Origin: a virus
Taxonomy: Duplodnaviria; Caudoviricetes
Length of the DNA stretch: 63,385 bases
Direction: 5' to 3' (one strand)
Virus record (IMG/VR): IMGVR_UViG_3300037751_000116
Span: 1-63,385 of that record
The translations under genes and the position numbers were made by a program. The notes under the pieces were generated by a model. The model did no database searches and was not told the origin of the DNA. It saw nothing but the letters and a program-made list of their open reading frames with translations. This document shows positions 1-60,638 of this stretch, piece by piece (the stretch's first letter is position 1; each line of letters opens with the position of its first letter).

Positions 1-906
1 TACACCCCTTTGGGGGCGGAGGTTATCACCGCGTCATGGTCAAATGCTGGAGCCGCCGACGGTGCTGGTTTCACCGTGGAGTTTGATGCGCCGGTTGGTG
101 ATCTCTGGTTGCACTATCAGCTTTACCAAAGCCGGATCAGTACCGATGCCTTTTATGTCAATGGATACTACTGCCGCTTCTGGTCCGGCCCCACTCAGGT
201 GTGCCGCGTTGATCTTGACGATGGTCAGTGGTATCTGCAAACGGGAGACGATGCTACTCGTATTGCTCTGGTTCTACCAACGGCTATGACCACGGATACG
301 TGGGACTTCCAGATAACGTTTGATGGTAGCGACTATACCATGGAGTTGTTTATCAACCAGCTCTCCGCCGGTTCTCTGGGACCGTTCTCTATTGCGGGTG
401 GCGGGGCTGTCGACCGGATCACCTTTGACCATTACCATATGTTGAACAACAGCACACCGGGGGTTTGGGCGTATTCGGAAATGATCGTGACCGATGGCGA
501 ACCTACTCTCGGTTGGCGTATGGCAACCTTGGCCCCCGACGCTAATGGTGCAGACACGTCATGGGATGGCGATTTCGCGGGGGTGGTCGAGGCGGGCGAT
601 GGTCAGTCAATCTCGACCTCAGTCGTGGGCAATCGAGAGTCGTGGGATATTTCGCCGTACAACGGCCCGGCCGTCTCGGTAAGCATCCGGGCGGTGGTCA
701 ATAAGTACCGTGGGAACAAAGGAGTTACGGGTCCGCAGAACGTGACCCCCTACACCCGCCACGGAGCCACAATTGAGGACGGAACTCCGTACAGCCCTGA
801 CGGTACTGATCATCTGGCGGTACTTGATAACAACCCGGATACCGGGGTTCCGTGGGAACCAGCCGATCTTGCGACTCTTCAAGTCGGCGTAAAAGCTGAC
901 ATCTAA
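1..906 (+). CDS. Tail-associated / receptor-binding protein, 5'-truncated
   Basis: Frame is open from base 1 (YTPLGAEV...); beta-rich and acidic; C-terminal NPDTGVPW...LQVGVK; lies between baseplate and fibre genes; N-terminus probably at 63339. Confidence 0.65.
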   Translation, partial: YTPLGAEVITASWSNAGAADGAGFTVEFDAPVGDLWLHYQLYQSRISTDAFYVNGYYCRFWSGPTQVCRVDLDDGQWYLQTGDDATRIALVLPTAMTTDTWDFQITFDGSDYTMELFINQLSAGSLGPFSIAGGGAVDRITFDHYHMLNNSTPGVWAYSEMIVTDGEPTLGWRMATLAPDANGADTSWDGDFAGVVEAGDGQSISTSVVGNRESWDISPYNGPAVSVSIRAVVNKYRGNKGVTGPQNVTPYTRHGATIEDGTPYSPDGTDHLAVLDNNPDTGVPWEPADLATLQVGVKADI

Positions 907-926
907 TATCAGAAAGGACTACCACC

Positions 927-1901
927 ATGCCGGGCGTTTATCCTAATAGCGGCGTGCCCGCTGCACAGACCTCCAATGGGGTCGACGTTGACAGCGAGAA
1001 CTGCGCTGGTAACGAACTTTTCTACTCGGTCATCCGCTGCCAACCGCGGTTCGATCCCGCCGCCATGAATGCGGTCATTTCCGAAATCCTGAACCTTGCT
1101 ACCTGCGACGGTGAGGCGTACGATTGTTCCCGGCTCGACAACCTTTGCCGGGCGGTTACCGCATTGTCCGGTATTCAGCCCGCCGTCGTCGGGTTTACGG
1201 TCCGCCCCGGCGGTATGGTCTATTGCGAGGATGATCAAGTCTACTGGAACTCAACCGGCTCCGATGTAGTCCTTACCGGCACCTCGTGCGAGGACCTTGG
1301 GTCGGACGGATTGACCGCGATCAATGCGGCACCGGGGGGTCTATTCTTTTCGGCGCCTATTATAGGTGCCGGTACCGAGGGCGTCCCTTATACAGTTCGG
1401 GAAGCCACCGAGCTTTTGCGCGGCTCCGTCCGGCTCGCCTCTGCCCTAGAGGTTAACGCCGGGACCAATACGACCGCCGTTGTTACCCCGGCTGGCTTGG
1501 CGCAGTGGCTCTGCAACCTCGAACCTCTGACTGGTCCTGAGGTCGCTAGCCTAGATGGCAGTGAGTTGGCTGCGATTTGTTTTGAAGATGGACCGCGATC
1601 TTTGACTCTTGACCAACTGGCTACGGTTGTCGGTGGGGTTAGTCAGAACCCATTTGACTATCCGTTGTCGGACCCTCTTGATTGGTCTCTGTCAAACAGC
1701 AGTCATGGTGGTTCACTTCTGGGACCAGCGGCACCCGCGAACGCGCCACAACAAGGAGTCTGGGAAATACGACCCTTTGGCGAAGATGTTGAGGGTATTC
1801 CGACAATCTTTCCAACAAGGTTTGTCCTTCCGGGCGGCACCACCAGTCCTCCATTGGACGGAAATGACGCACAGCTGGTCTGGCGTCCGACCGGGCTATA
1901 A
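927..1901 (+). CDS. Tail fibre protein
   Basis: RBS aaagga; Cys-rich baseplate-attachment-like N-terminus (MNAVISEILN...DCSRLDNL); fibre repeat ATELLRGSVRLASALEVNAGTNTTAVVTPAGL. Confidence 0.75.
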   Translation: MPGVYPNSGVPAAQTSNGVDVDSENCAGNELFYSVIRCQPRFDPAAMNAVISEILNLATCDGEAYDCSRLDNLCRAVTALSGIQPAVVGFTVRPGGMVYCEDDQVYWNSTGSDVVLTGTSCEDLGSDGLTAINAAPGGLFFSAPIIGAGTEGVPYTVREATELLRGSVRLASALEVNAGTNTTAVVTPAGLAQWLCNLEPLTGPEVASLDGSELAAICFEDGPRSLTLDQLATVVGGVSQNPFDYPLSDPLDWSLSNSSHGGSLLGPAAPANAPQQGVWEIRPFGEDVEGIPTIFPTRFVLPGGTTSPPLDGNDAQLVWRPTGL

Positions 1902-1945
1902 TACTTACTACCAACCTCAACCCAACTGTACAGGAGATTTGTACT

Positions 1946-2113
1946 ATGATCAAGAAAAGCTTAATCCCCGTCGTGGTCGTTCTGGCCTTGATGCTTGCGG
2001 CGGTGTTCTTTTTGAACCCGACCGGCGGTTCCAACGTCGGCGACCCAGAGGGCGGCGGAGAGGCCGCTGGTGGGAACGATGGTTCCGGTGGCTCTGGCGG
2101 AGGGGACAAGTAA
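1946..2113 (+). CDS. 55-aa single-pass membrane protein with Gly/acidic tail (not in ORF track)
   Basis: RBS caggag; MIKKSLIPVVVVLALMLAAVFFLNPTGGSNVGDPEGGG...GDK; its stop abuts the holin start. Confidence 0.7.
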   Translation: MIKKSLIPVVVVLALMLAAVFFLNPTGGSNVGDPEGGGEAAGGNDGSGGSGGGDK

Positions 2114-2338
2114 GTGCAACAAGAGGAACTGCACCTACTGAAGTCGCGGTCCTTCTGGTTGGTGGTGGCGTCAATCGTCATCACCATCACCACAAACGCG
2201 GGCTATACTCTACCGATCAAGGATCACGAACTTGCAGCTTTGCTGCCCGAACTCGTATCTGCGATCTTGATGGTATGGGCTTACGTGGAACGCTACTTCG
2301 GTAAGAAAAAGCTGAGGGTTCGCCGTGTTCGGTCTTGA
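2114..2338 (+). CDS. Putative holin
   Basis: 74 aa, two hydrophobic segments, basic C-terminus, KSRSFW motif, located in lysis cassette. Confidence 0.7.
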   Translation: MQQEELHLLKSRSFWLVVASIVITITTNAGYTLPIKDHELAALLPELVSAILMVWAYVERYFGKKKLRVRRVRS

Positions 2339-2564
2339 TCTCGAAATCATCGGCGGCGGCATAGCCGCCCTGCTAATCCTTGTCGCATCGTGGGTGCGCC
2401 GGGGGCGAAAACTGAAACGCATCAAAGATGCCTTGAAATCGGAGGCTGCTAAAGATGAAATACTTGACGACATGGAGCGTTCTGTTCCTCAGTCTTTTCA
2501 CATTGACCGCTTGCTTGCAAAGCGAACCTCTGATACCAAAACCGACGGTGACGACGGTAGTTAA
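2325..2564 (+). CDS. Putative i-spanin (Rz-like)
   Basis: N-terminal TM followed by charged helix; overlaps a lipoprotein gene in another frame. Confidence 0.65.
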   Translation: MFGLDLEIIGGGIAALLILVASWVRRGRKLKRIKDALKSEAAKDEILDDMERSVPQSFHIDRLLAKRTSDTKTDGDDGS

Positions 2565-2721
2565 GGAAGTCTGTGCGGAGTTTCAGCCGGTCAACATCGA
2601 GCTGGCCACGAAACACCTTGATCTCGACAGCGTAGCATCCGACCCAGAGGCGGTTGATATGTTTCGTCGAATTGAGGCCAACGAGGCGCGGCGTAAGTCG
2701 TGTGCAGGGGAGTCTAAATGA
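2455..2721 (+). CDS. Putative o-spanin lipoprotein (Rz1-like)
   Basis: Signal peptide with lipobox LTAC; overlapping arrangement with i-spanin. Confidence 0.75.
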   Translation: MKYLTTWSVLFLSLFTLTACLQSEPLIPKPTVTTVVKEVCAEFQPVNIELATKHLDLDSVASDPEAVDMFRRIEANEARRKSCAGESK

Positions 2722-3455
2722 CCTATGATCTTAAGAAAGTTCAACAAGCTTTGAATGACCGCGGGTTCGAGGGCGCGAACGGCTTACCGTTGACGATCGA
2801 CGGGATAGCCGGGCCGAATACCAGTCACGCTATTCGATCCTTTAAGCGGTCGGTAGGGCTAGCCGATCGTGATTACGTCGGTCCCCTGACCTACGCGAAG
2901 CTGACCGGCGATGATGCAGATGTGCGCGCCAAAGTGCCGAACTCGAGAGCTAACCCACCTTGGTTCAACGAACTACTCGGGATGATGGGAACTCACGAGA
3001 CCAGAGACCATGCCGCACTATCCTTATGGCTGGCCTCCGATGGGGCTACCGTGGGCGATCCCTCGTCGATCCCGTGGTGTGGTGATGCAGTGGAAACCGC
3101 CATCCGGCTCGCTCTGCCCGGTATCCCGGTTCCTGAAAACCCCTACCTCGCATCCAATTGGACGAAGTGGGGTGTTCCCTGCAAACCGGCTTTAGGGTGC
3201 CTCTTGGTATTCTGGCGCGGGTCGCCTGACAGTTGGCAGGGTCACATCGGTTTCTATGCCGGGGAGTCAGACAGCAGTTATTATGTTCTGGGTGGAAACC
3301 AAAAGAACTCGGTTTCAATCGCGCCTATCAGCAAGACCCGGCTTCGTAAAGGCGGCTCACGGTGGCCAGATCATACCATGCACCCGGACGTGCCCCCACC
3401 ATCGGACCGCGTGGTCCGAATGTCGGGCGGAACCATCAGCACGAATGAAGCGTAA
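2718..3455 (+). CDS. Endolysin: peptidoglycan-binding domain plus NlpC/P60/CHAP-like (TIGR02594-type) peptidase
   Basis: VQQAL...DGIAGPNT...F...DYVGPLT PG-binding motif; PWCG, GHIGFY, LGGNQ catalytic motifs. Confidence 0.9.
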   Translation: MTYDLKKVQQALNDRGFEGANGLPLTIDGIAGPNTSHAIRSFKRSVGLADRDYVGPLTYAKLTGDDADVRAKVPNSRANPPWFNELLGMMGTHETRDHAALSLWLASDGATVGDPSSIPWCGDAVETAIRLALPGIPVPENPYLASNWTKWGVPCKPALGCLLVFWRGSPDSWQGHIGFYAGESDSSYYVLGGNQKNSVSIAPISKTRLRKGGSRWPDHTMHPDVPPPSDRVVRMSGGTISTNEA

Positions 3456-8876: not shown

Positions 8877-9806
8877 TTAAAATAACTCCCTGGTAAGAGG
8901 TTGGCGCATCCCGGCGCGTTTCTTTTCGTTTATCATTCGTTCGATCTCTTGATACGACCACAGGTTATAGGTAACCCGTCCTAGATAGCGCCGGACCAAC
9001 TCGAGATCAAATCCCTGTTCTTTCAAAATATCCACAATACGCTGTTGCTCTATCGGGGTCAAGGTATCAATGTGTTTACCCGCCGTCTGGCGACTGGGTG
9101 ACTCGTCCGATATATCAAGGTTCCCGTAGCCCGGTATGGTGATCGAACCGAACGCTGTCGATTGTATCCACGACGACGAGTCGCAAGAATACCACGGGTA
9201 CCTTTCCATAAGAGGCACGGCGGTGATCCCGAACCCGTGCACCCGGGTCTTGGGTCTGCCTGAACCGTCGAGAATGTATTTCTCGAACATTCGGTCTAGC
9301 CAAAGCTCTAGTTGCTTTTGGCTGGAGCCGACCATACCGCCCAAAGTAATGTATTCGTAGTTTGCAATATAATGTTCTAGGTACCGTTCATCCTCTCCAG
9401 CATGGAAACAGGGCAGCGGGCGAACCCCCAACGACTCCATCTGGACCTGGTTCTGGTAGGTTTTCAGAGGGTCGCCGATGCCGTCCAGCACGGAGGCCAA
9501 GAGAATACCGTTTTCTTTCCTTATCAGGTCCTCGTTCTCTTTTATGTATCTACAATAATCCTCTACATTCAACTCGACCCCCAAGGTATAGGCCGAATAA
9601 GCGCCCGAGTCAAGAAAGACCTGGGTACCGGCTGCGCGAAGCTCTCGTACCTTCTTTTCCTTCCCCACGTAGTGCCATGACTCCAGCCGATTGACTACCT
9701 GGTGAACGATTTGCTTTTCGTGGTCAAGCAGTTTATTATACTGCAACTGGCCCTCTCCTACCCCGAAGGTGAAGGTACCAGCGATATAAATCTGCAAGTC
9801 ACTCAT
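8877..9806 (-). CDS. dpdA: DpdA-type DNA guanine transglycosylase (TGT fold)
   Basis: FLDSGAYS, PCFH, LGGMV, HGFG, DSSSW motifs; adjacent to preQ0 synthesis genes and polymerase. Confidence 0.85.
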   Translation of the reverse strand: MSDLQIYIAGTFTFGVGEGQLQYNKLLDHEKQIVHQVVNRLESWHYVGKEKKVRELRAAGTQVFLDSGAYSAYTLGVELNVEDYCRYIKENEDLIRKENGILLASVLDGIGDPLKTYQNQVQMESLGVRPLPCFHAGEDERYLEHYIANYEYITLGGMVGSSQKQLELWLDRMFEKYILDGSGRPKTRVHGFGITAVPLMERYPWYSCDSSSWIQSTAFGSITIPGYGNLDISDESPSRQTAGKHIDTLTPIEQQRIVDILKEQGFDLELVRRYLGRVTYNLWSYQEIERMINEKKRAGMRQPLTRELF

Positions 9807-9908: not shown

Positions 9909-10481
9909 CTAGCGGCCCGCTAGAGACATAAACTCGGCTCTCGCTTCAGGCTGGTCACGCAACGCTCCGCGCAGAGCGCAGGTCACCGTATGATGGCCTT
10001 GTTGGCAGATACCGCGGCTTTCCATGCACATGTGGCGCGCTCGAATAATCACCCCCACCCCTACAGGACCAAGATGGGTGTCGATAGCATCGGCGATTTG
10101 ATTGGTCAACCGTTCCTGAACCTGAAGCCTGCGCGCGAATACATCCACCACACGCGACAGCTTGCTCAATCCTACGACCCCATTGTGGGGAATATAGGCT
10201 ACCGTGGCGGTGCCAAAAATATCAGCGAGGTGGTGTTCACATTTGCTGAATAAAGGTATATCCTTTACCATCACCATCTGGTCGTAACCGTCGGCTCCGT
10301 CATTGAATACCTTTAGGATTTCGCCCGGGTCCTCGTGGTATCCTTTGGTCCAGTATTCCCAAGCCTTAGCCACCCGGTCAGGGGTTTCGATCAATCCGCC
10401 GCGAAGCCCGGTGTTATGGTTCTGCACCTCAATGAGGTGAAGTAATTGTTTGACCAGACCAGAGACTAATTCTTTTTTCAT
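9909..10481 (-). CDS. folE: GTP cyclohydrolase I
   Basis: ETPDRVAK, CEHH, GLSKL, RRLQVQERLT, HMCMESRG. Confidence 0.97.
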   Translation of the reverse strand: MKKELVSGLVKQLLHLIEVQNHNTGLRGGLIETPDRVAKAWEYWTKGYHEDPGEILKVFNDGADGYDQMVMVKDIPLFSKCEHHLADIFGTATVAYIPHNGVVGLSKLSRVVDVFARRLQVQERLTNQIADAIDTHLGPVGVGVIIRARHMCMESRGICQQGHHTVTCALRGALRDQPEARAEFMSLAGR

Positions 10482-10933
10482 TTCTTCTTTCCTAGATATG
10501 TGGCGGAGTTGCCTTCGTGCTCGCTCACGGTGACGCTGTGCATACGAACGCGAGGTGTATAGCCTGCATCGGTCAACCAGATTTCAGCAACGCCGTAAAT
10601 CAACTCGGCGAAAGCCTCGCATCCCGTAGCGGGCACCAAGATGATTTCGGCCACCCCGATCTCTGCCAGAGAGATAAGGATGTCGCGGGCGGGGTCGTCT
10701 TCAGCTACCAACATCTTATGGTCTAAGCTATCCTCTAGCCGTCCCTTAAGAGACTTCAGTGAGCCGAAATCAACCACCCAGTTGCACTCGTCCAATTCAT
10801 CCGACTCAAACTCAAGATGAACTTTCAAGGCGTACCCGTGCAAAAGACGGCAATGACTTCTGGCCCGCCATTGACGGAAACAAACGCTCAACCCGAGATT
10901 GTGGCCGTAGGTCTTTGAGGACCGATAGGTCAT
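10478..10933 (-). CDS. queD: 6-carboxytetrahydropterin synthase
   Basis: HCRLLHGY, VVDFG, LDH, terminal EHEGNSA. Confidence 0.9.
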   Translation of the reverse strand: MTYRSSKTYGHNLGLSVCFRQWRARSHCRLLHGYALKVHLEFESDELDECNWVVDFGSLKSLKGRLEDSLDHKMLVAEDDPARDILISLAEIGVAEIILVPATGCEAFAELIYGVAEIWLTDAGYTPRVRMHSVTVSEHEGNSATYLGKKK

Positions 10934-11196
10934 TACCTAACCCTCCGTGCGTTAGCGATATGCCGCCCGGTCAACAGGACTACCTCGACGCAGAAACAGG
11001 TGTCGGGCATTTCTTTGAGGACATCGGCGGCGATTTCCTCCATGAACGCGCAGCGCATTGATGCCAGTCGACGGATCGTTCTGCGAACCTCGTAGAGTTC
11101 TGCGAACCCTTCGAAGTACGCATAAATGTAAACCACATCTGGCAAGCCGTTGACCGGGCAGATAGTTACAATAGGCAACCAGTGACTGATCCTCAT
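10933..11196 (-). CDS. QueF-like T-fold protein (87 aa)
   Basis: CPVNGLPD matches QueF catalytic Cys/Asp spacing; MEEIAADVL resembles QueF-L HEELAVDL; no NADPH-binding QueF motif; ATGA overlap with the upstream gene. Confidence 0.7.
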   Translation of the reverse strand: MRISHWLPIVTICPVNGLPDVVYIYAYFEGFAELYEVRRTIRRLASMRCAFMEEIAADVLKEMPDTCFCVEVVLLTGRHIANARRVR

Positions 11197-11609
11197 GGTA
11201 GTACTATGCTCATTATCCATCCGTAAATCCAAACAAAGGTTATGGCTAGTCCGAATAACCAGCGCTGTGAGAACCATTCCCAGTCCGGGCCATCAGGCGC
11301 GAAGCGGTGGCGGGTTAGAGGGTAGAGTAGCATCGGACCCCAGGTCTTGCCGTGGGTCGGCACATCTAGGATCAGATGAGACGCCAGAGCTAGAAAGACC
11401 AGCGGACTGCCCGTAGCAACCCACGCAGCCCCGCCCACCAATGCGAGAAAGGCTAGGGTATGGGTCAGGTCGTAAAGTATTGTCGGTTTCGATCTACGGG
11501 GGCCGATAAGAGGTAGGTCAGGCAACACCGCGACCACCGCCCCCAATAGGGGATTACCGTAGGCTAAGCCCACGGTAAAACCGGCGATAGCATGGGAGAA
11601 AACGTCCAT
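11193..11609 (-). CDS. YdjM-like membrane-bound metal-dependent hydrolase
   Basis: SH at N-terminus, LPDL, THT, SHLILD motifs; several hydrophobic segments. Confidence 0.75.
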   Translation of the reverse strand: MDVFSHAIAGFTVGLAYGNPLLGAVVAVLPDLPLIGPRRSKPTILYDLTHTLAFLALVGGAAWVATGSPLVFLALASHLILDVPTHGKTWGPMLLYPLTRHRFAPDGPDWEWFSQRWLFGLAITFVWIYGWIMSIVLP

Positions 11610-11614
11610 CGGAA

Positions 11615-12382
11615 CTAACCCTGATAACCGCGATAATTGGCGGTATCAGGTAGCGTCATAAGCCCTTCACGCCAAGCACGAAGAACCAGCGGGTCGGGAA
11701 ATCCCGCCTTTTCGAAACCGTCCGCACGCAGCACGTTTGCGTGGTTCATATCGGTGGGCGGATATTTTCCGTCGTAGCTCGTATGGGTATAAGCCATCGC
11801 TTCCCAACAGCCGGGAGTATCAAAGGCAAGGTCGACGGTCTCCGCCTTTGTGAGATACATCAACGGCGACATCAAGGTGATAGGGCGGGTGGCCCGATGA
11901 TCATTTCCAAGAGCCTTGTTAATGTAGTCCTGCGCCGCTTCAATGAATACCTTACGGCAGTCATCGTAGTTCGCGTTATCCATCTGGCAGACGCCGGTGT
12001 AGATATAGTAAACCCCTAGCGCCGCCGCCCGGTTGGCTGCGATCGTCAGGAATAGAGCGTTGCGCATCGGCACGAAAGTTTTTTCGCGGCGGTCCCCGAT
12101 CACCTCGTCCATCTGTTCGGCATTCTCATACTGTTCGAGAGGGCCACCGGTAGTAAGAGGGCTGGTACTATGAAGGATGCCGGGCACCTCGATAACTTCG
12201 TGGCTGGAGACTCCCGCCATGGCCGCAACCTTTCGAGCCGCGTCGATTTCAATTGAATGAGTCTGACCGTAGTCAAATGTGATGGCGTGAACCTCGTCGT
12301 GTTCATGCTTTGCCAAGAATAGACAGGTCGTGCTATCCTGCCCGCCCGAAAGGATTACGAGTGCGCGTCGTGCTTTTTTCAT
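11615..12382 (-). CDS. queC: 7-cyano-7-deazaguanine synthase
   Basis: SGGQDS PP-loop, FDYGQ, VPMRN, YDDCR. Confidence 0.93.
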   Translation of the reverse strand: MKKARRALVILSGGQDSTTCLFLAKHEHDEVHAITFDYGQTHSIEIDAARKVAAMAGVSSHEVIEVPGILHSTSPLTTGGPLEQYENAEQMDEVIGDRREKTFVPMRNALFLTIAANRAAALGVYYIYTGVCQMDNANYDDCRKVFIEAAQDYINKALGNDHRATRPITLMSPLMYLTKAETVDLAFDTPGCWEAMAYTHTSYDGKYPPTDMNHANVLRADGFEKAGFPDPLVLRAWREGLMTLPDTANYRGYQG

Positions 12383-12394
12383 AACTCTGGTTCC

Positions 12395-13186
12395 TTATTC
12401 CAGTTCAAGGGTTTTGTGAATTTGGAGTTGAAGCGTGTAGCCGAAATCGAGGCAAGACTTAACCGCCGCTGCCCGGTTCAGGCCGTTTTGGTATTCATCC
12501 TGAACATCGGCGGGCTGAACATAGATCGGTAAGCTCCACCCGCCGTCTCTGCCCTTCATAGGGCGCGCAAGCTGCGGGTTCGCGGTGTGCTTCAGGGCGC
12601 GGATGGGTAGCCCGTCATCGGGGTTGATATTCTCATGGTCAAGGACGTATTTGAAACAGCACGACCGCGCCTCGGTATGCTGGTGGACCTTGCCGGTCTT
12701 AGGGCTGCAAACGATATAAACCCCACGGGTGTCGCCCGCGATGCTGGTGACCGTTCGCCGTAGAAGGAACCCGATACCATCGGGCGGGGGAAGCGTGCCG
12801 TTGGTTTCAATCTGGATGTAGAACCCTTTGTCGATCAGGCACTCAACCAAGGCACGCAGCCCACCGGGTTGCCTGAATGGTTCACCGCCGGTAATCACCA
12901 CCAGCCCATTGTCGTGAATAGGAAGCGCTGAAACTTCGGTGGTCACTTCCTCTGCCGTCATGGTCCTTCGACCAAGGGTATACTCGGTATCGCAGAGAGG
13001 GCATTGAAGGTTGCACCCGGCTAGCCGAATGAAAACGGCGGGGCGACCGCTAAAGGGTCCCTCGCCTTGGATGGTATGAAAGATGGAGTGAACCTCGACA
13101 TCTTGCCGGTAAGATCGGTTGGTCTTTTCAATCGGCTGCGAGTTCAAACGGGTTCCGTCAAACGGACCGGTATAATCTTGGGTCAT
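12395..13186 (-). CDS. queE: 7-carboxy-7-deazaguanine synthase (radical SAM)
   Basis: TIQGEG, CNLQCPLCDT, ITGGEP, IETNG, LQIHK; start re-placed at MTQDY after gagg. Confidence 0.95.
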   Translation of the reverse strand: MTQDYTGPFDGTRLNSQPIEKTNRSYRQDVEVHSIFHTIQGEGPFSGRPAVFIRLAGCNLQCPLCDTEYTLGRRTMTAEEVTTEVSALPIHDNGLVVITGGEPFRQPGGLRALVECLIDKGFYIQIETNGTLPPPDGIGFLLRRTVTSIAGDTRGVYIVCSPKTGKVHQHTEARSCCFKYVLDHENINPDDGLPIRALKHTANPQLARPMKGRDGGWSLPIYVQPADVQDEYQNGLNRAAAVKSCLDFGYTLQLQIHKTLELE

Positions 13187-13274: not shown

Positions 13275-13955
13275 TTATTCAGTGGCGGGTGCCGCCTCGC
13301 TGGGTGGTGCTGCGGGTTCGGTAGCAGGGGCAGCGGGTTCAGCGGCGGGCTTAGGCGCGCGGCCCACCGGGCCGATCCCGTGGAACTTCCGCCACTGGCC
13401 ATACTCAGCGCGCACATTGCCGACGCTGAGACCGGCTTTTTCAGCGAGTTCGATGCACTCCGAAATCGGGGCAGGCGCTTGCTTGGCCGCGCTGACCTGG
13501 TCGAAAATCGCCCACGCCTGCCCGCATTTGGAACCAGCGATAGGATGCAGAATGCCGTTCTGTTTCACTCGCTCGGACTTCTGCGCGGCCTTGGCCGCTT
13601 TGGCTTCCTCGCGTGCTGCCTTGGCCGCTTCTTTCATTTGCGTCTTGACAGTTTTGATGTTGTCACGAGTGGCCTTCAGCGCGACCTTGGCTGCGTCTGA
13701 GTTTTGTTTCGCGGCTTCTTCAGCGGCGTTCGCTTCGACCAGCGCGGCCTGACCTTGGGCGCGGTTCGCCGCGTTGGCCTCGTCGTCGGGGATGGCGTCG
13801 AGTGCGGTCTTGACATTCACTGTATACTGCTTCGCGGTCTTCAAGGCTGTGACGGCGGCGTCGGCTGTGGCCTTGGCCTCGGTAACGGCGGCTTCAGCGA
13901 GATCAACAGGAGACGGCGGGGTGATGGCGTCAGTGGCTTCAACGGTATCGTTCAT
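13275..13955 (-). CDS. Ala-rich coiled-coil protein with C-terminal putative DNA-binding domain
   Basis: Highly biased codon usage; own promoter; GLSVGNVRAEYGQWRK domain. Confidence 0.7.
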   Translation of the reverse strand: MNDTVEATDAITPPSPVDLAEAAVTEAKATADAAVTALKTAKQYTVNVKTALDAIPDDEANAANRAQGQAALVEANAAEEAAKQNSDAAKVALKATRDNIKTVKTQMKEAAKAAREEAKAAKAAQKSERVKQNGILHPIAGSKCGQAWAIFDQVSAAKQAPAPISECIELAEKAGLSVGNVRAEYGQWRKFHGIGPVGRAPKPAAEPAAPATEPAAPPSEAAPATE

Positions 13956-36748: not shown

Positions 36749-36960
36749 CGATTAAGCTGGAGCCGCACCAAGAGAAAACGGTATACCCCGAAGTCGAGCA
36801 GTGGGCGTCGGAAAACTTCCATCTGGTCGACAGCGTCGATCTGTTCAAGGGCAGATTGACAATCACTACCCGGTCTATAATCCATGACCGGGAAACCCTT
36901 GACCTCATGATCGAGGACGGTATACTTGACCCGACCGAGATTGATTACGAAATCGAATAG
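36739..36960 (+). CDS. Small acidic protein
   Basis: RBS gaggtg. Confidence 0.6.
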   Translation: MPVAIKLEPHQEKTVYPEVEQWASENFHLVDSVDLFKGRLTITTRSIIHDRETLDLMIEDGILDPTEIDYEIE

Positions 36961-36973
36961 GAGCATCAAAAAC

Positions 36974-37555
36974 ATGATTACGAATACCGATGAACGCGCA
37001 AAGGCTATCCATGCCGCCAACGTCTCCGTTGGTTGGTGGGATGAGTGGCCGAACAAGCTCGACCGCCATGACACGGCGATGATGCTGACGGTCACCGAAC
37101 TCGCGGAGGCCGCAGAGGGCGCACGCAAGAGCCTCATGGATGATCACCTACCGCAATACGACATGTTTGCGGTGGAGTTGGCTGACGCATCAATCCGGTT
37201 GCTCGACCTCGCCGGGGCTTACTTTGAACTGGGTATTATGCCTGTCGGCGCTGACCACGGACACCCGTCCTTACAAGCGTATATCAACGCTTATACGGAA
37301 GCCCCGTGGTTAGAGGCTTCTATGCGCAAGCTGCCTAACCCTCTCGCACAGTTATACCAGGTCGTTAAAAGTATAACGGAGTATGACATGGGAGAGGCCG
37401 TCCAGGTTGCCGATGGCTTGGGGATGCTCGCCGTTCTGGCAGAGGTGCACGGGATTGATCTGGACCCGATCATCGACGCGAAGCTAGCCTACAACGCTGA
37501 ACGACTGGATCACAAGCGCGAAAGCCGGGCCGCGAAAGGGGGTAAGAAATGGTGA
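36974..37555 (+). CDS. MazG-like nucleotide pyrophosphohydrolase
   Basis: ELAEAAEGARK, VELADASIRLLDLAG, KLAYNAER. Confidence 0.8.
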   Translation: MITNTDERAKAIHAANVSVGWWDEWPNKLDRHDTAMMLTVTELAEAAEGARKSLMDDHLPQYDMFAVELADASIRLLDLAGAYFELGIMPVGADHGHPSLQAYINAYTEAPWLEASMRKLPNPLAQLYQVVKSITEYDMGEAVQVADGLGMLAVLAEVHGIDLDPIIDAKLAYNAERLDHKRESRAAKGGKKW

Positions 37556-50900: not shown

Positions 50901-52403
50901 ATGGCAATTGACAGCCTTAGAGACGGTTTCGTCCGCCTCTGTTTTGATCCGAACGCCAATGTGCTCGGTGAAAGATGCCGGTTGGTACTGGAGGGGCAAA
51001 TGACTGCCACCGGTACTGCAACCGCCGACCAACTGGTCAAGGTCACTTCGGCGCGCGATCTGGACGCCATGTTTGGCGAGGGTTCGGTCATCGGCGAGTC
51101 GCTGAAGGTCGCAATCAACTGCTGCGGAAACGACGCGGTTGAAATCTTTGCAGTACCACGCGACGATGCCGCCACCGCGGTGGCCGCTGAATATACCCTG
51201 ACAATCGTCGGTCCTGCGACTACCGACGGGCGGCTCGATTTCTACTGGGGTGACTCTCAGTGGAACATTTCGGTTCGGGTTGCGGATGGTGACGACGAAA
51301 CTACCATCGCCGCTGCGATCGTGGCCGCGCTGCCTACTGGGTTCCCTTATACCGCAGTAGCCCTTGCCGGTGTGATCACCTTGACCGCTCGCAATGCGGG
51401 CACCGCTGGCAACTTCCTTAACGGGATTGTCAACTGGCACCAGCGCAACGACTATATGCCTGAAGGCGTTACGGCGACTTTTGCGCAAACCGTTGACGGT
51501 GAAACTGATCCGGCCCCGCTCGACTATAGCGCGGTATTCGGTGATTGCTGCCTATGCTGTTGGGCGCTTCTGACCGGCGACGAGGTTTGGCAGGACGGTA
51601 TGGTCGATTTCCTGAACGAGGCGTGGTCCTGTGACAAGCCTCAATGTTTCGGTCACGGCTACACCTACAACAGTGGTTCGCTTGGCGAAATTCTCGCCTC
51701 CGATACCAATTCGGCTACCATTAGCCGCTTGGCCCATTGCGATACCGACTCGAACTTCCCGTGGCTGAAGGTCGCCGCCTATGCAGCCAAGTCGTGCTGC
51801 CTGACGGTCGACAATCCTGAGATCAGTATTCAGGGTCCGAACTACGGGGTTCTGGATTGTATCCGCGCCCCTGAGTCGTGCAGTTCCTGTTTCACCTTCG
51901 ACGAGCAAGAGCAGTTGCGCGACAGCGGCTTTGTGGTTACCGTGCCGGTAAGTGGCGGCTCGGGTGGTTTGACTTCCCCGATGATCACCAACGATATTAC
52001 CAACAACCGGTTCGATGCTGAAGGCCGCGAAAACCTGACTTTCCAGTCGGTTTCTTCCCGCCGCTTGGCCACTGAGACCGCAACCTTGATTGCAGAGCAA
52101 CTGCAACAGTTCAATGGTCTCGGTTACTACACCGACGGCACCAACATCCGCGAAGGCGCACTCGGCGTCAACCGCCGGATGATGCTTGGTACCATGCGGG
52201 CGTGGGTTAAGACGCAGGTCGGAGCGCTGTTCAGTCAGTTCGATGATCTGGACCGCGACTTGACCTTTACGGATGACTTCGAGGTCGCGCCGCGCTGTCA
52301 GGGCGTTCCCGGCAAGCTGTACATGAACCTGATTTATCGGCCTCCGGTTCGCATTCGTCAGGTGGTTGTCAATGCTGTTCCGAAGCTGTTGAACAACTGC
52401 TAA
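50901..52403 (+). CDS. Contractile tail sheath protein, Cys-rich
   Basis: MFGEGS, ITLTARNAGTAGN, EQEQLRDSG; 500 aa, before tube. Confidence 0.88.
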   Translation: MAIDSLRDGFVRLCFDPNANVLGERCRLVLEGQMTATGTATADQLVKVTSARDLDAMFGEGSVIGESLKVAINCCGNDAVEIFAVPRDDAATAVAAEYTLTIVGPATTDGRLDFYWGDSQWNISVRVADGDDETTIAAAIVAALPTGFPYTAVALAGVITLTARNAGTAGNFLNGIVNWHQRNDYMPEGVTATFAQTVDGETDPAPLDYSAVFGDCCLCCWALLTGDEVWQDGMVDFLNEAWSCDKPQCFGHGYTYNSGSLGEILASDTNSATISRLAHCDTDSNFPWLKVAAYAAKSCCLTVDNPEISIQGPNYGVLDCIRAPESCSSCFTFDEQEQLRDSGFVVTVPVSGGSGGLTSPMITNDITNNRFDAEGRENLTFQSVSSRRLATETATLIAEQLQQFNGLGYYTDGTNIREGALGVNRRMMLGTMRAWVKTQVGALFSQFDDLDRDLTFTDDFEVAPRCQGVPGKLYMNLIYRPPVRIRQVVVNAVPKLLNNC

Positions 52404-56412: not shown

Positions 56413-57600
56413 ATGGCTGAGTCCTGCTACCAACCGCAATACCTGCCCGGCAGTTTCAAGCTTGTTCCGTTCAAAGCGATTGAAGCTACGTCAGAGCATG
56501 GACGGCGCGGGGCTGAGGGTGAGTTTCCGTTCGGCGAACAAACCGGATATGCTGACCTCGGTCGGCGTATCCGCACCTATACGATTTCCGCTCGCTTCGA
56601 CAGTAACGACCATATACTGGAGGCTGCGGCGCTTATCGCTGCGGTGGAATTGCCGGGAGCCGGGCCGCTGGTGCATCCCACGCGAGGGGTCATCCTTTCC
56701 GCCGCTTGCCGCTCGCTGCGGGTCCGTGATCGTGTTGAGGACGAGCAAGGCGTAACCTACGTCGATATGGAGTTCGTGGAGGCTAACAACTGGCCTAATG
56801 GGCTTTCCCTCGTGGGGCAGTTGCTCGGTCTCTTGATCAACCCTGTTATCGCGAGTTCTGAGGCTTCGTTCAGTAGCCGCTACCGCCCTGAGACTATCCA
56901 GTCATTTCGTGAGGTGGCGGTTGTGGATGCTGCACAGGTTCAGGTCCAAGCCGTCACTGACGCCTACTCGCTGGCGACGACCGACAAGCCGAACGATACC
57001 ACCCGGAACAGGATCATAAGCGATCTGCAAGCAGTCGTCGTGAACGATGATCTAGCGCGGGATACCGATACGATGCGCCGTGCCCTGACTCTAGGCATGA
57101 CCGCGGTTTCGAGAGAACTCGACGCCCCGGATCAGTACTCGGTATTTCGTTCAATCGCTAACGGGGCGGCTCGTTCAAGCACATTCAGAGCGCCCGCGTC
57201 GGATGCTGAAAACGCTATCTACAGTCACGTCCGCACGGTGGCCGCTGCCTATATGGCTAGGGGGGTTCTCGATACCGATGATCTGAACACTGGCGAAATC
57301 TTTGCGCGTGGCGATGTGATCGAAACCGTAATACAAGGGGAAATGGACTATGCCCGACAAGCGTGTGAAAATGATCTATACTACCAACTCTCAGGTTTCA
57401 GGATTGAAGTTGCCGCGCAGCTTGCTCGCAAAGCATACGCTTCACCTGGTCTTATCCAGTACGATTTCGGCGGGGGAGTCCACCCGCTCGTCGCGGCGTA
57501 TTCAGTCTACGGCGACGCGAAAAGGCACCGGGAACTCGAAAACCTGAACGCGATTGATCGTTACGGGCGGTTCCGCAGAGAAGTGGTAGCGAGAGCATGA
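56413..57600 (+). CDS. Mu N-like DNA circularization / tube initiator protein
   Basis: GSFKLVPF, GRR...EFPF, DLGR, GPLVHPTRG, FVEA. Confidence 0.85.
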   Translation: MAESCYQPQYLPGSFKLVPFKAIEATSEHGRRGAEGEFPFGEQTGYADLGRRIRTYTISARFDSNDHILEAAALIAAVELPGAGPLVHPTRGVILSAACRSLRVRDRVEDEQGVTYVDMEFVEANNWPNGLSLVGQLLGLLINPVIASSEASFSSRYRPETIQSFREVAVVDAAQVQVQAVTDAYSLATTDKPNDTTRNRIISDLQAVVVNDDLARDTDTMRRALTLGMTAVSRELDAPDQYSVFRSIANGAARSSTFRAPASDAENAIYSHVRTVAAAYMARGVLDTDDLNTGEIFARGDVIETVIQGEMDYARQACENDLYYQLSGFRIEVAAQLARKAYASPGLIQYDFGGGVHPLVAAYSVYGDAKRHRELENLNAIDRYGRFRREVVARA

Positions 57601-58904
57601 GTGTAGCCGTTTTCATAGACCGTCAGGAGCTAATCGGTTATACCGACCTGCGGCTCACCCGTTCCAAAAACGAGACCACAGGAGAACTGTCGATTTCGAT
57701 TTTCATGGGCTGGTTTCCTTCAGAACCAGTAATGGGTGAGGTGGTGCGGGGCCAAGAGGTTTTAGTTTACTTTGGCCGTCAGTTGGCGTTCAGCGGCATA
57801 ATCGACCGTAGGAGGGATACGGGCGACCGTTCAGGAGAGCCGGGCACTCAGAGAGGCCAGCAAGGAAACGTGAGTGATCCTAGCATAGGTCCCAACCAAT
57901 ATACCGTCCGCCTGACCTGCCGTGGCAAGACCAAGTTTCTGGTCGATAGTAGTCACCAGCACACCACAGCTACGATCTTGAATACCACCAACCGGGAAGT
58001 TTTCGAGGAACTAATAAAGCCGTGGGATATTCCGCTGCAGTGGGAAGCGGCGGTAACCAAACTGGAGCGGGTCCGCCTTCGTGATGGTGCAATGGTAACC
58101 GACGAGTTACAGCGGGTTGCTGAAATGACCGGCCTCTATTTCTACGAGACCCGCGACGGCAGTCTTAAGGTCGTCGATGGCCCCGAAACCGAACAGGGTG
58201 AGGCGCTGGTACTGGGTACGAATATCCTGAGCTTTAGCACTGACCAAGCGGGCGATAAAGAACGCAGCGAGGTGAAAGTTAAGGGTCAGAAAAATAAACC
58301 CACAGACTGGGGTGAGGCTGCGGTTCTACCGACTTTCAAAAATGCGGCGGATACCTCGGTTCCAAATTATAGCCCGATCAACGTCCAGCTATACGGCGAC
58401 GCCACCGACGAGCTTTTGACCAAGAGAATTGACTACGAGGTTAATAAGCGTTCATCTGACAGCAAGAAAATATCTCTTGAAGTATTCAACGTTTTGCAAA
58501 CCGACGGCACTCACTGGGATATAGGGAAGGTTCATTACGTGGAAATCCCCCCGGCTGGAGTCGTGGGTAATTTCGAGGTAGAACAGATCACCTATACCGT
58601 CGACAATGATAAAACTTTGAAAACCTCTCTGACCCTATCGCCCTTGCCGATCAAAACGGCCGCTCCAGCGGCGCAAGGCGGCGCTCTGGGCGCGCTAGAG
58701 GCTCTTGGCGGGGGGATGCCCACGGGGGCCGGTAGGGCGGCTTCCTTGGGCGTCGGAGCGCTTGCGCAAAGCTGGAGCGGACCCACTCTAGGGGCGGTGC
58801 TTTCTCGGGTGGTAGATTTTCTGGGTGGCGAGGGCTTGGACTCCGTCGAGGACGCCGCTAAGACCTCGCCGCCTCTGACACTGCCAAGGGATATAAACCG
58901 ATGA
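57597..58904 (+). CDS. Baseplate hub (Mu gp44-like)
   Basis: GIID, RGKTKFLVDSS, LVLGTNILS, RSEVKVKGQ. Confidence 0.82.
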   Translation: MSVAVFIDRQELIGYTDLRLTRSKNETTGELSISIFMGWFPSEPVMGEVVRGQEVLVYFGRQLAFSGIIDRRRDTGDRSGEPGTQRGQQGNVSDPSIGPNQYTVRLTCRGKTKFLVDSSHQHTTATILNTTNREVFEELIKPWDIPLQWEAAVTKLERVRLRDGAMVTDELQRVAEMTGLYFYETRDGSLKVVDGPETEQGEALVLGTNILSFSTDQAGDKERSEVKVKGQKNKPTDWGEAAVLPTFKNAADTSVPNYSPINVQLYGDATDELLTKRIDYEVNKRSSDSKKISLEVFNVLQTDGTHWDIGKVHYVEIPPAGVVGNFEVEQITYTVDNDKTLKTSLTLSPLPIKTAAPAAQGGALGALEALGGGMPTGAGRAASLGVGALAQSWSGPTLGAVLSRVVDFLGGEGLDSVEDAAKTSPPLTLPRDINR

Positions 58905-59497
58905 CCGACTTCGCCACCTTTCGTTCGCGCACCCGCGACCTTCAAGACCAGAACGAGCGTGGCGTGTGGGGCGTCCGTCAGGAAGTTCCCGGCGCTGGTG
59001 CCATGATGAGTGTGCGTGGTACCGAAACCTTGGACGAAGAACTACCAATCATGAATTTTGGTTATAGCTTCAATCTGGCCGCTAACAGCAACGCTGAAGT
59101 GATCATGATGAGTCTTGGTAGCGACGTCGACGCCAAGGTGGCAATCCCTACCCTTCCCCGCGATATACAGCACCAATGGGCTGAGGGTACCGGCGGGGTT
59201 CAATCACCTACTGATCCTGAACGACGACTCGAATACAACGACAATGAAACTTGGCTTAAGGACGGGAACTATAAGCTAGGTAACAACAAAGAAGTCGAGG
59301 TTACCGTTGATGGCGGCACCGTGACCATCAACATCACCGGCGGCGCGAATATCAACAGTAGCGGCGACATGGTGATTTCAGCGCCTAGCGTCGAGATCAC
59401 CAGCGCGGCGCTTACGCATAACGGGACCAACGTGGGCGACACCCATGTTCACGGCGGCGTTGAAAGTGGACCCTCAAATACGACAGGACCTCAGTAA
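58901..59497 (+). CDS. Baseplate spike (Mu gp45-like)
   Basis: C-terminal HNGTNVGDTHVHGGV (HxH metal tip). Confidence 0.88.
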   Translation: MTDFATFRSRTRDLQDQNERGVWGVRQEVPGAGAMMSVRGTETLDEELPIMNFGYSFNLAANSNAEVIMMSLGSDVDAKVAIPTLPRDIQHQWAEGTGGVQSPTDPERRLEYNDNETWLKDGNYKLGNNKEVEVTVDGGTVTINITGGANINSSGDMVISAPSVEITSAALTHNGTNVGDTHVHGGVESGPSNTTGPQ

Positions 59498-60636
59498 TGC
59501 CTATTATTTGCGAAGACCTGCCAGATGGAGTTACCGCTTCATGGGGAACATGGACTGGAGCGCTGATCAATAGTATATCTCAGTTCGCCTCTAAAGGCAT
59601 AACCGTAGAGCCGCAGGTAAATCGGTACTTGACACAGGTGATGTTTCAAAGGTCGGGGTCAGCGTCTCTAGGACATGCGATCTCTCTCGTAGTGGTTGAG
59701 CTGTCAGAGGTAAACCCGGGAACAATAATCGACGTAATCGTACCGATTAATGTTGTCTCTGTAATTGATCCACCCGACGGGCAGATATATACTTTGCCGG
59801 TTCCGGTTCTTATGGAGTCGGGAAAGATTTACGGAGTTATATTCGTTAGAACCGACGGCGCTAATAACAGCGCTTTGGTTATATCCTTTCCGGGCGGCAT
59901 AACCCCCAACCCCGACCCTAATGGATACTTTATCCTAAGTGGCGCAATCCGGTATTTGTCTAACAATCCATCCCTTGGTCAAAACGTATTCTTCTCTCCG
60001 GCGGAAACCGATACCGTCGATCTGGTAATCTATAGTGAGGGAGTGGACGAGGTATGCGAAAATACTGACCCCGACCCTTCTAACCCCGACCCGGTATCTG
60101 TTTGCGGAGTTCCCCCTGTAGGACGTCGGCGGCTGTTCTGGTCGACTCAGTCCGAAAGCTGCGGCCTCCGTAGGTCTTGCGGCGCGGAGTGCGGTGAACC
60201 CGGCTTGGGGGTGGAGGCGGGTACCGAAGGCGCAACCATCAGTACCGATAACTGGCTTCGCGGGTTGATGGCAAATATGCTAATGACCGACGCTCGCCTG
60301 CCCGATAATCCATGCGGCTACCGCCCCGGCTCGCAAGGCGGTCATTGGTCGGAAAGCTACATCGACAATGGCCCGCAGGTCGTCGGTACCTTGATGCGGA
60401 CAGTCGAACCGCAAGCCCGGGTTCAAGATGTGGTAAATCTGCTAAAGCAGTACGCACAGATCACCTTACAGAGATTGGTGGCTAGAGGGGCCGCGTTGGC
60501 GGTTGACGTTGACGCTTTCTACGAGGGTAGCAACATTTTCAGGATCGACGCCACAATCACCGGCGTCGATAATCAACAAACCAATGTGTCGGTATCCGGC
60601 GCGCGGTTGTCAAACTCGTGGGTATGGGAACAATAA
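59497..60636 (+). CDS. Baseplate wedge / sheath initiator (Mu gp46-like) with extra N-terminal domain
   Basis: LMTDAR, GGHWSESY, GTLM in the C-terminal half. Confidence 0.7.
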   Translation: MPIICEDLPDGVTASWGTWTGALINSISQFASKGITVEPQVNRYLTQVMFQRSGSASLGHAISLVVVELSEVNPGTIIDVIVPINVVSVIDPPDGQIYTLPVPVLMESGKIYGVIFVRTDGANNSALVISFPGGITPNPDPNGYFILSGAIRYLSNNPSLGQNVFFSPAETDTVDLVIYSEGVDEVCENTDPDPSNPDPVSVCGVPPVGRRRLFWSTQSESCGLRRSCGAECGEPGLGVEAGTEGATISTDNWLRGLMANMLMTDARLPDNPCGYRPGSQGGHWSESYIDNGPQVVGTLMRTVEPQARVQDVVNLLKQYAQITLQRLVARGAALAVDVDAFYEGSNIFRIDATITGVDNQQTNVSVSGARLSNSWVWEQ

Positions 60637-60638
60637 AA

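Follow-up and report, generated by a model that had tools for sequence, protein, structure and literature searches.

A phage-encoded YdjM-like membrane protein between QueC and a QueF-L-like protein: a candidate accessory of the deazaguanine DNA modification pathway

What a small membrane protein of the YdjM family contributes to a phage deazaguanine pathway is the question raised by the 63,385-nt virus record IMGVR_UViG_3300037751_000116 (hereafter the window, meaning the whole stretch of DNA that was analyzed). The modification of phage DNA with 7-deazaguanines defeats restriction enzymes and some CRISPR nucleases and is an active field of research, and the published parts lists of this modification omit the gene considered here. 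This gene, designated Y, encodes a YdjM-like protein of 138 amino acids (aa) and is found between queC and F, which encodes a QueF-L-like protein of 87 aa. The window is a single record rated 94% complete, that is, a near-complete phage genome, harboring terminase, portal, tail sheath and baseplate genes plus a replication module. Its 7-deazaguanine operon occupies the minus strand at about 8.9–13.2 kb, in the order QueE, QueC, Y, F, QueD, FolE and DpdA, followed by the sliding clamp and DNA polymerase A (coordinates in Table 1), and the co-encoded DpdA, FolE, QueD, QueE and QueC identify it as a phage 7-deazaguanine DNA modification cluster. The link of Y to the deazaguanine pathway is well supported by comparative genomics. 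As for its function, the chances are slightly better than even that Y would be a catalytic accessory, a putative metallo-hydrolase, of a QueF-L-like step placed after preQ0.

The strongest evidence for this link comes from the gene neighborhood. Loci carrying Y were collected from IMG/VR scans with Y alignments and one F alignment, from species-representative genomes, from metagenomes and from 50,697 deposited phage genomes, and their neighboring genes were called by tblastn with the window proteins. After removal of re-fetched contigs and of one 100%-identical pair, near-identical viruses being otherwise kept, 27 Y-bearing loci outside the window remained. It was verified that the nearest recognizable upstream gene of Y was queC in all 27, and that F was found directly downstream of Y in each of the 26 loci with enough DNA, the other one ending inside Y. 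A preliminary description of this DNA, made from the sequence alone, had put Y forward as a candidate pathway component, and the survey, in which both neighbors were retained even in permuted operons, bears this proposal out. In most loci, the open reading frames (ORFs) of the triad either overlap or follow one another directly; three loci show gaps, the largest of ~280 nt. The majority layout is that of the window (helicase...QueE-QueC-Y-F-QueD-FolE-DpdA-clamp), and QueC-Y-F is kept in five architectures, namely the PolA/clamp lineage and contigs with a GpA-type terminase, with a split PolA and UDG, with ParB and a T4-type terminase, or with ribonucleotide reductase and PolB. In the four rearranged contigs, the order is QueC-Y-F-FolE-QueD-QueE followed by the GpA-type terminase (L020); QueC-Y-F-FolE-DpdA followed by UDG/exonuclease and the split PolA (L021); a ParB-like gene, a DpdA-like gene, QueC-Y-F, an ORF and QueD-QueE-FolE followed by the T4-type terminase (L022); and ribonucleotide reductase, QueE and, further on, FolE-QueC-Y-F followed by PolB (L024). 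The QueC proteins of these four contigs share 26–55% identity with that of the window, and the triad is their sole constant. Y is, therefore, strictly adjacent to queC and F across unrelated phage backbones.

The distribution of Y outside these loci was equally narrow. Among the 50,697 phage records, Y was matched by Sphingomonas phage MMDA13 alone, which is represented by two records, and F likewise by no other phage. In the species-representative genomes, the single Y match was a 57.5-kb phage-like contig binned into a metagenome-assembled genome. Among 401 genomes from the class of that assembly, a subfamily-level match was obtained only in the phage-like contig (E 2.8e-47), while generic YdjM matches occurred in four at ~1e-9, in open frames of 167–413 aa, and no Y match at E<=1e-8 was obtained in the other 396. 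It follows that the Y subfamily was not found outside phage-like DNA in the material searched. The preliminary description had considered that homologues independent of que/dpd genes would speak against a pathway role; no such homologue was found for the Y subfamily, whereas the wider YdjM family is common in bacteria without que genes. This bears on the possibility that Y is an unrelated passenger of an early operon, serving superinfection exclusion, envelope remodelling or a generic YdjM role, with its position merely inherited. A single replication-module synteny is common to most of the 27 loci, generic YdjM proteins are widespread in the absence of que genes, and one F-bearing fragment, discussed below, is devoid of Y. 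However, the QueC-Y-F order persists in the four contigs with permuted que genes and different replication and packaging families, Y and F are jointly present or jointly absent in the cultured phages searched, and no subfamily member was found outside such a cluster, all of which renders the passenger explanation very unlikely.

The coupling of the three genes is also evident at the nucleotide level in the window. The spacer between the queC stop codon and the Y ATG (11609) measures 5 nt (11610–11614), the queC ORF ending at 11615 with its stop included, and positions 11193–11196 read tcat on the plus strand, i.e., ATGA on the minus strand, so that the Y TGA overlaps the ATG of F. Both features are exactly as the preliminary description had given them. 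The F start was placed at 11196 rather than at the upstream ATG at 11277, since F homologues align from residue 2–3 onward. Y is thus probably translated jointly with QueC and F by translational coupling. The dN/dS of Y was 0.12–0.33 in three close or moderately diverged locus pairs, compared with 0.11–0.36 for QueC and 0.10–0.18 for F; Y is a real, conserved gene under purifying selection and not a chance ORF.

By sequence comparison, Y is a member of the YdjM family (YdjM/YbcI/DUF457; PF04307, 'LexA-binding, inner membrane-associated putative hydrolase') with invariant residues that resemble metal ligands, in agreement with the assignment made in the preliminary description. Window Y scores 26.9 bits against Pfam PF04307 (E 3.8e-6), about 2 bits under the gathering cut-off of 29 bits. 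YdjM was matched at E<=1 by all 59 subfamily members, and 12 of the 20 scanned singly exceeded the gathering cut-off, with up to 45.4 bits. When the 59-member Y profile was compared by hhalign with 36 generic YdjM proteins, a probability of 99.9% (E 3.4e-31) was obtained, and the aligned columns paired the YdjM motifs one to one (M-D-x3-H, P-D, Y-x3-H-S, S-H-x3-D-x2-T-H and Y-P). Additionally, a hidden Markov model search of 1.84 billion representative proteins with a six-relative profile returned 117 matches at E<=1e-3, of which 57 reached E<=1e-10 and 26 reached E<=1e-30; a tight group of 124–159 aa stands apart from generic YdjM proteins, which appear only at E>1e-7. Y apparently belongs to a compact, phage-restricted subfamily of YdjM (PF04307) membrane proteins, which shares motifs and helical membrane architecture with the family but differs from generic YdjM proteins in its length (124–159 aa versus about 150–340 aa), in the absence of an insertion of ~30 residues in the first cytoplasmic loop, in its own E-W-E-F-F-N motif, and in being found on phage or phage-like contigs only, always in a queC/QueF-L context. 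In Escherichia coli, the ydjM gene is SOS-regulated.

The His/Asp motifs, described beforehand as intact, proved to be invariant across the 59 relatives and the 28 locus-derived copies. No member of the 59-sequence alignment, in which identity to window Y drops to ~26%, deviates at D2, H6, D31, H50, H78 or D82, and these residues are present in all 28 copies wherever the positions are covered, while M1, G10, P30, R38, P42, Y46, T85, H86, P97, E109, W110, E111 and G120 are conserved in at least 90% of the 59 members. At residue 109, window Y carries Asp where all 26 other copies covering the position carry Glu, which turns E-W-E into D-W-E. The Asp/His/Glu cluster of Y probably constitutes a divalent-metal (zinc-type) site, and Y is a putative metal-binding hydrolase on these grounds.

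The similarity of Y to other families was limited to few profiles. The zinc-dependent phospholipase C/P1 nuclease profile (Zn_dep_PLPC, PF00882) was matched at E<=1 by 27 of the 59 members, with a best E of 2.4e-6, and DUF4184 was matched by 22. The PF00882 match is local to the S-H-x3-D-x2-T-H helix (H78-x3-D82-x3-H86), extending over residues 20–88 in one relative, and in individually scanned members it remained below the gathering score (best 24.3 versus 26.8 bits). In the ESM Atlas, PF00882 was also assigned to 22% of the members of a phage-rich cluster of YdjM proteins. The phospholipase C positions matching this helix are presumably zinc ligands; these enzymes are soluble and secreted, whereas Y is membrane-embedded. 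No similarity to nitrilase, nitrile hydratase or DpdC was detected in Y members in Pfam at E<=1, no NCBIfam family matched Y or F, PHROGs gave Y merely a 28-residue match to an unknown family, and searches of the PDB sequences with the Y profile and a single F sequence returned only chance-level matches. No fused form of Y was found among proteins of 280–2000 aa, the range of 243–279 aa lying outside this search. In BFVD, 97 columns of the Y model were aligned with the 252-aa 'QueC' A0A6J5N497 of an uncultured Caudovirales phage (23% identity, probability 0.97, E 0.33), a protein whose length lies in that same uncovered range; a miscalled or fused frame of QueC and Y would explain this alignment, as would chance. 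Another ESM Atlas cluster comprises 87 actinobacterial proteins of ~327 aa in which a YdjM domain is joined to a staphylococcal-nuclease (SNase) domain, which hints that some YdjM proteins act on nucleic acids.

The structure of Y was modelled with AlphaFold2 from the 59-sequence alignment, with a mean predicted local distance difference test (pLDDT) of 96.9 and a predicted template modelling (TM) score of 0.90. The model contains helices at residues 2–16, 20–34, 44–49, 52–66, 70–85 and 115–136, and a long ordered loop at 86–114. Five of these helices (2–16, 20–34, 52–66, 70–85 and 115–136) are hydrophobic, with mean Kyte-Doolittle values of 1.25–1.95, and the model displays the multi-helix integral membrane architecture of the YdjM family. 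Over the 59 sequences, lysine plus arginine averaged 3.4 in loop 35–51 and 2.9 in loop 86–114, versus 0.17 and 0.03 in the opposite loops 17–19 and 67–69. The positive-inside rule would therefore place both long loops, and the N-terminus with them, in the cytoplasm. Residues D2, H6, D31, H50, H78, D82, H86, (D/E)109, W110 and E111 are found at helix ends or in loops on this predicted cytoplasmic side, and the conserved Asp/His/Glu cluster is thereby predicted to face the cytoplasm. A structure search of the ESM Atlas with Y returned YdjM clusters at TM 0.65–0.71, and BFVD contained one clear relative, the uncharacterised A0A8S5S4F3 (39% identical, TM 0.89). No solved structure informs Y, since Foldseek of the model against the PDB gave no match at E<=0.001 and VIA-align over 48,161 chains reached a best Z of 5.0, for designed helical proteins, which is within helical-bundle noise; the best 50 VIA-align rows included neither phospholipase C nor P1 nuclease. 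A holin or lysis role was also considered and rejected, as the gene is located in the early replication/nucleotide module, far from the lysozyme-like gene at 2718–3455.

This topology is relevant to the idea that Y is a transporter or channel, probably oligomeric, importing ammonium, preQ0 or another precursor as a counterpart of YhhQ or QueT. Other phage clusters do carry membrane transporters (PMC7472734, Fig. 4 legend) and transmembrane proteins are mentioned in PMC6884629 (Fig. 3 legend), and both papers agree with the preliminary description that YhhQ is the usual membrane member of such pathways. YhhQ (Vut_1, PF02592) is absent from the window at E<=0.01, with 9 of 14 control genomes matched, and Y itself gave no PF02592 match in Pfam scans. 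On the other hand, the conserved polar residues of Y are all gathered on one side of the membrane instead of lining a passage across it, the consensus of the family looks like the site of a metallo-enzyme, and preQ0 import would be unneeded because the phage encodes the whole preQ0 pathway. A transport function is, consequently, highly improbable.

Y could alternatively act as a scaffold or anchor that tethers an F oligomer, and perhaps QueC, to the inner membrane near replicating or entering DNA, in which case the polar cluster would be non-catalytic and bind a structural metal or a partner. Such a function would be compatible with the tight gene coupling (the ATGA overlap and the abutting ORFs of most loci), with the very small size of the subfamily proteins (124–159 aa), and with the E-W-E-F-F-N motif of the cytoplasmic loop, which is missing from generic YdjM proteins and could be a docking surface. 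However, the invariant residues are precisely the ones common to all of YdjM, a family without QueF-L partners, and conserved chemistry accounts for this better than lineage-specific docking does. Moreover, no sign of physical contact was found in the present data, the complex prediction for Y and F (score 0.00, mark 0.32) counting neither for nor against binding. We regard the scaffold as quite unlikely.

A catalytic accessory role for Y depends on the nature of its partner F. The F model adopts a T-fold (pLDDT 96.5), and its best PDB folds were the archaeosine synthase QueF-Like structures 5k0p/5jyx (E 1.1e-4 to 9e-4, TM 0.64–0.76), followed by PTPS/QueD and GTP cyclohydrolase I, although F has no Pfam or PHROG match. 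In a 16-homologue F profile, C-P-x4-P-D aligned to the Cys-Pro...Asp of QueF-L, though at E 0.9, and in the alignment this motif is followed by an acidic pair, as in QueF-L. Residues W6, P8, T11, C13, P14, D20, R38, M52 and E53 are invariant in all 28 F copies, and F thus combines the T-fold with a putative catalytic Cys (C13) and a putative general-acid Asp (D20), in the manner of QueF-L. The motif that marks true QueF reductases, namely the NADPH motif E[SL]K[SA]xK[LIY][YFW] taken from PMC10516641, was found in none of the 28 F copies, and neither was the looser ExKxxK. Compared with archaeal QueF-L (Pyrobaculum calidifontis), F shares the T-fold, the aligned Cys-Pro...Asp and the lack of the NADPH motif, but their identity is only 14–17%, F has 82–92 aa versus chains of 99–109 residues, and F would act on DNA or a free base instead of tRNA. 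Both its fold and its active-site pattern mark F as QueF-L-like and not as a reductase, and it is predicted to be an amidinotransferase. One copy (L005, 6411–6776) bears a C-terminal extension of ~36 residues and totals 122 aa.

The slot filled by Y and F in the operon is occupied differently in related phages. In Nipunavirus/9g-type phages, the position QueE-[ ]-QueD-FolE-DpdA-clamp is taken by Gat-QueC, a fusion of glutamine amidotransferase (GATase) and QueC that constitutes one of three known routes from preQ0 to archaeosine (PMC6884629). In Pseudomonas phage JG054 (Nipunavirus), this slot contains one 466-aa protein with GATase_6/7 and QueC domains, with neither Y nor F, while phage Iggy, whose annotated DpdA is 53% identical to that of the window, has a 353-aa QueC with no GATase domain and neither Y nor F; its DNA modification was reported as dPreQ0. 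In a profile search, the window showed neither GATase_6/7 nor a canonical QueF above cut-off. The same slot has, therefore, three solutions, i.e., nothing extra, a fused glutaminase, or Y plus F. The comparison between Gat-QueC and Y concerns function and position only, since the GATase domain is soluble and unrelated to Y.

It was demonstrated in PMC5485725 that QueF-L forms a Cys thioimide with preQ0 and that the amidine is completed only with free NH4+ in vitro. Glutamine and asparagine do not serve as donors, and an in vivo NH4+-generating partner was not excluded by the authors. The preliminary description had suggested that Y liberates an amine or ammonia donor, salvages a precursor, or hydrolyses the nitrile or amidine; of these candidate chemistries, the idea of an ammonia donor is indirectly supported by this partner having been left open and by the GATase-QueC fusion filling the same slot. 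In the mechanism proposed here, Y would be a five-helix inner-membrane protein, co-produced with QueC and F and acting after preQ0 synthesis. F would capture the preQ0 nitrile as a Cys13 thioimide, and Y would generate or hand over a nitrogen nucleophile (ammonia or an amine) that converts the thioimide to the amidine (dG+), thus playing the part held by the GATase domain of Gat-QueC in sister phages; dG+ would then be the product of the window phage pathway. Nitrogen supply to F is the most economical model considering the strict Y-F pairing, the metal-type site facing the cytoplasm, the displacement by a GATase domain in a sister phage and the literature on QueF-L and NH4+. Even so, nitrogen donation to the F reaction can be advanced only tentatively and is more doubtful than the accessory role as such. 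A bolder version, which we consider unlikely, identifies Y with the missing partner that would provide QueF-L-type amidinotransferases with nitrogen, namely a membrane zinc hydrolase releasing ammonia or a primary amine (e.g., a phospholipid head-group fragment) at the cytoplasmic face and feeding it to the thioimide intermediate. If this were true, an activity would be assigned for the first time in the widespread YdjM/DUF457 family, and, were the donor an amine, phage DNA would carry an undescribed N-substituted archaeosine-like base.

The same linkage evidence could be accommodated by a different chemistry, in which Y would be a metallo-hydrolase acting on a molecule of the deazaguanine pathway itself instead of a nitrogen donor. 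It might convert the enzyme-bound thioimide or nitrile to the amide (dADG), free the base by hydrolysing a phosphoester, be it of a precursor or of a salvaged nucleotide or nucleoside, or remove a by-product. The zinc-dependent phospholipase C profile, the sole cross-family similarity of Y, points in this direction, and dADG occurs unexplained in some phages, for which an unidentified protein has been invoked (PMC6884629). In view of the phospholipase C similarity, the substrate may be a nucleotide or the head group of a lipid, and the product may differ from plain dG+. Nevertheless, it is not obvious why a soluble substrate would require a membrane enzyme, the failure to detect nitrilase, nitrile hydratase or DpdC similarity is unfavorable, and the strict pairing of Y with F, and not with DpdA or QueC alone, fits better the reaction of F itself. 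Such a chemistry is rather unlikely in our estimation.

The proposal that Y is a catalytic accessory of the QueF-L-like step has itself to be weighed against several observations. Since most loci belong to one phage lineage, part of the synteny reflects shared ancestry, and the independent support for linkage amounts to about four rearranged contigs. The fragment L040 (6,391 nt, GC-rich, rated 11% complete) reads DpdA-F-QueC-QueD-QueE-FolE, with F within 1–3143, and no Y match at E<=1 was found anywhere in that record. It is the only Y-less case among the 27 F-bearing contigs outside the window, and it indicates that F can adjoin queC with no adjacent Y; Y may be located elsewhere in that virus or be dispensable there. 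As regards the partner, earlier phage 'QueF-L' candidates proved to be QueF reductases (PMC6884629, PMC10516641), archaeal QueF-L works without a partner in vitro (PMC5485725), and the archaeosine of MMDA13 DNA is predicted only (PMC7472734). As regards Y, no recognizable amidase or glutaminase signature was found, and the similarity to zinc phosphodiesterases (phospholipase C), being the only cross-family one, would suggest a phosphoester rather than an amide as substrate. No YdjM-family member with a demonstrated activity was found in the literature search. That search likewise found no paper linking the YdjM family to deazaguanines; in the available text, the word 'hydrolase' is absent from both Hutinet papers and 'DUF457' from the 2019 one. 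Two literature leads were discarded: the phrase 'metal-dependent hydrolase' is used for unrelated proteins in the available text of deazaguanine and phage papers, and a match to 'DUF457' was the irrelevant prefix of DUF4579 in a CRISPR Cap1 preprint.

Among cultured phages, the closest counterpart of the locus is found in MMDA13. Its gp34 (QHB80467.1, 'hypothetical protein') is 48.5% identical to Y over 96% of the length and is encoded between gp35 (QueC) and gp33 (a putative QueF-like archaeosine synthase), and synteny with the window extends over the entire replication and que module. In PMC7472734, the only paper to mention this gene in the available text, gp34 is listed among the proteins of unknown function, outside the six-gene modification cluster. 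The conserved third member of the QueC/QueF-L module suggests that the route to the final base needs an unassayed component, and the in vivo nitrogen source of QueF-L becomes testable in MMDA13, which is cultivable on Sphingomonas turrisvirgatae. For the large and uncharacterised YdjM/DUF457 family, Y would offer a first approach to function, and a new base is possible if the product is not plain dG+.

Table 1. Genes of the deazaguanine operon in the window, with the basis of each assignment
Feature	Position	Strand	Basis
Y, candidate YdjM-like membrane metallo-hydrolase, 138 aa, ATG start	11193..11609	-	Pfam PF04307 and subfamily profiles
F, QueF-L-like T-fold protein, 87 aa	10933..11196	-	fold match to QueF-L 5k0p/5jyx; no Pfam match
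QueC	11615..12382	-	PF06508 E 4.1e-48; TIGR00364 158.1 bits, above cut-off
QueE-like radical SAM enzyme	12395..13159 (probable start)	-	phrog_2076 E 1.3e-55, residues 101-337
QueD, 6-carboxytetrahydropterin synthase, PTPS family	10478..10933	-	PF01242 E 1.8e-18
FolE, GTP cyclohydrolase I	9909..10481	-	PF01227 E 9.9e-64
DpdA-type DNA guanine transglycosylase	8877..9806	-	phrog_887 E 9e-77; no Pfam match

The QueE frame as listed runs to 13417, with a Pro/Arg-rich N-terminal extension of ~100 residues that overlaps an upstream ORF of 226 aa; as similarity to QueE proteins sets in only around residue 101, translation probably starts at the ATG near 13159. The overlapping ORF (13275–13955) is Ala/Lys-rich, matches PHROGs of unknown function and is kept upstream of QueE in most related loci. 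The sequencing runs containing the window stretch were DNA runs labelled as soil and sediment metagenomes, three of them with at least half of its words, and no RNA run was listed among them. Two further genes lie outside the que operon: the product of 31246–31743 matches the PHROG labelled 'cysteine dioxygenase' (E 1.1e-49), and 36926–37555 encodes a MazG-like pyrophosphatase (E 4.4e-44). Tail sheath and baseplate hub/wedge proteins are encoded at 50901–52403 and 56413–61910, which indicates a contractile tail, whereas MMDA13, the closest cultured relative in the module, is described as a siphovirus. The que/replication module seems to be exchanged among phages with differing virion types.

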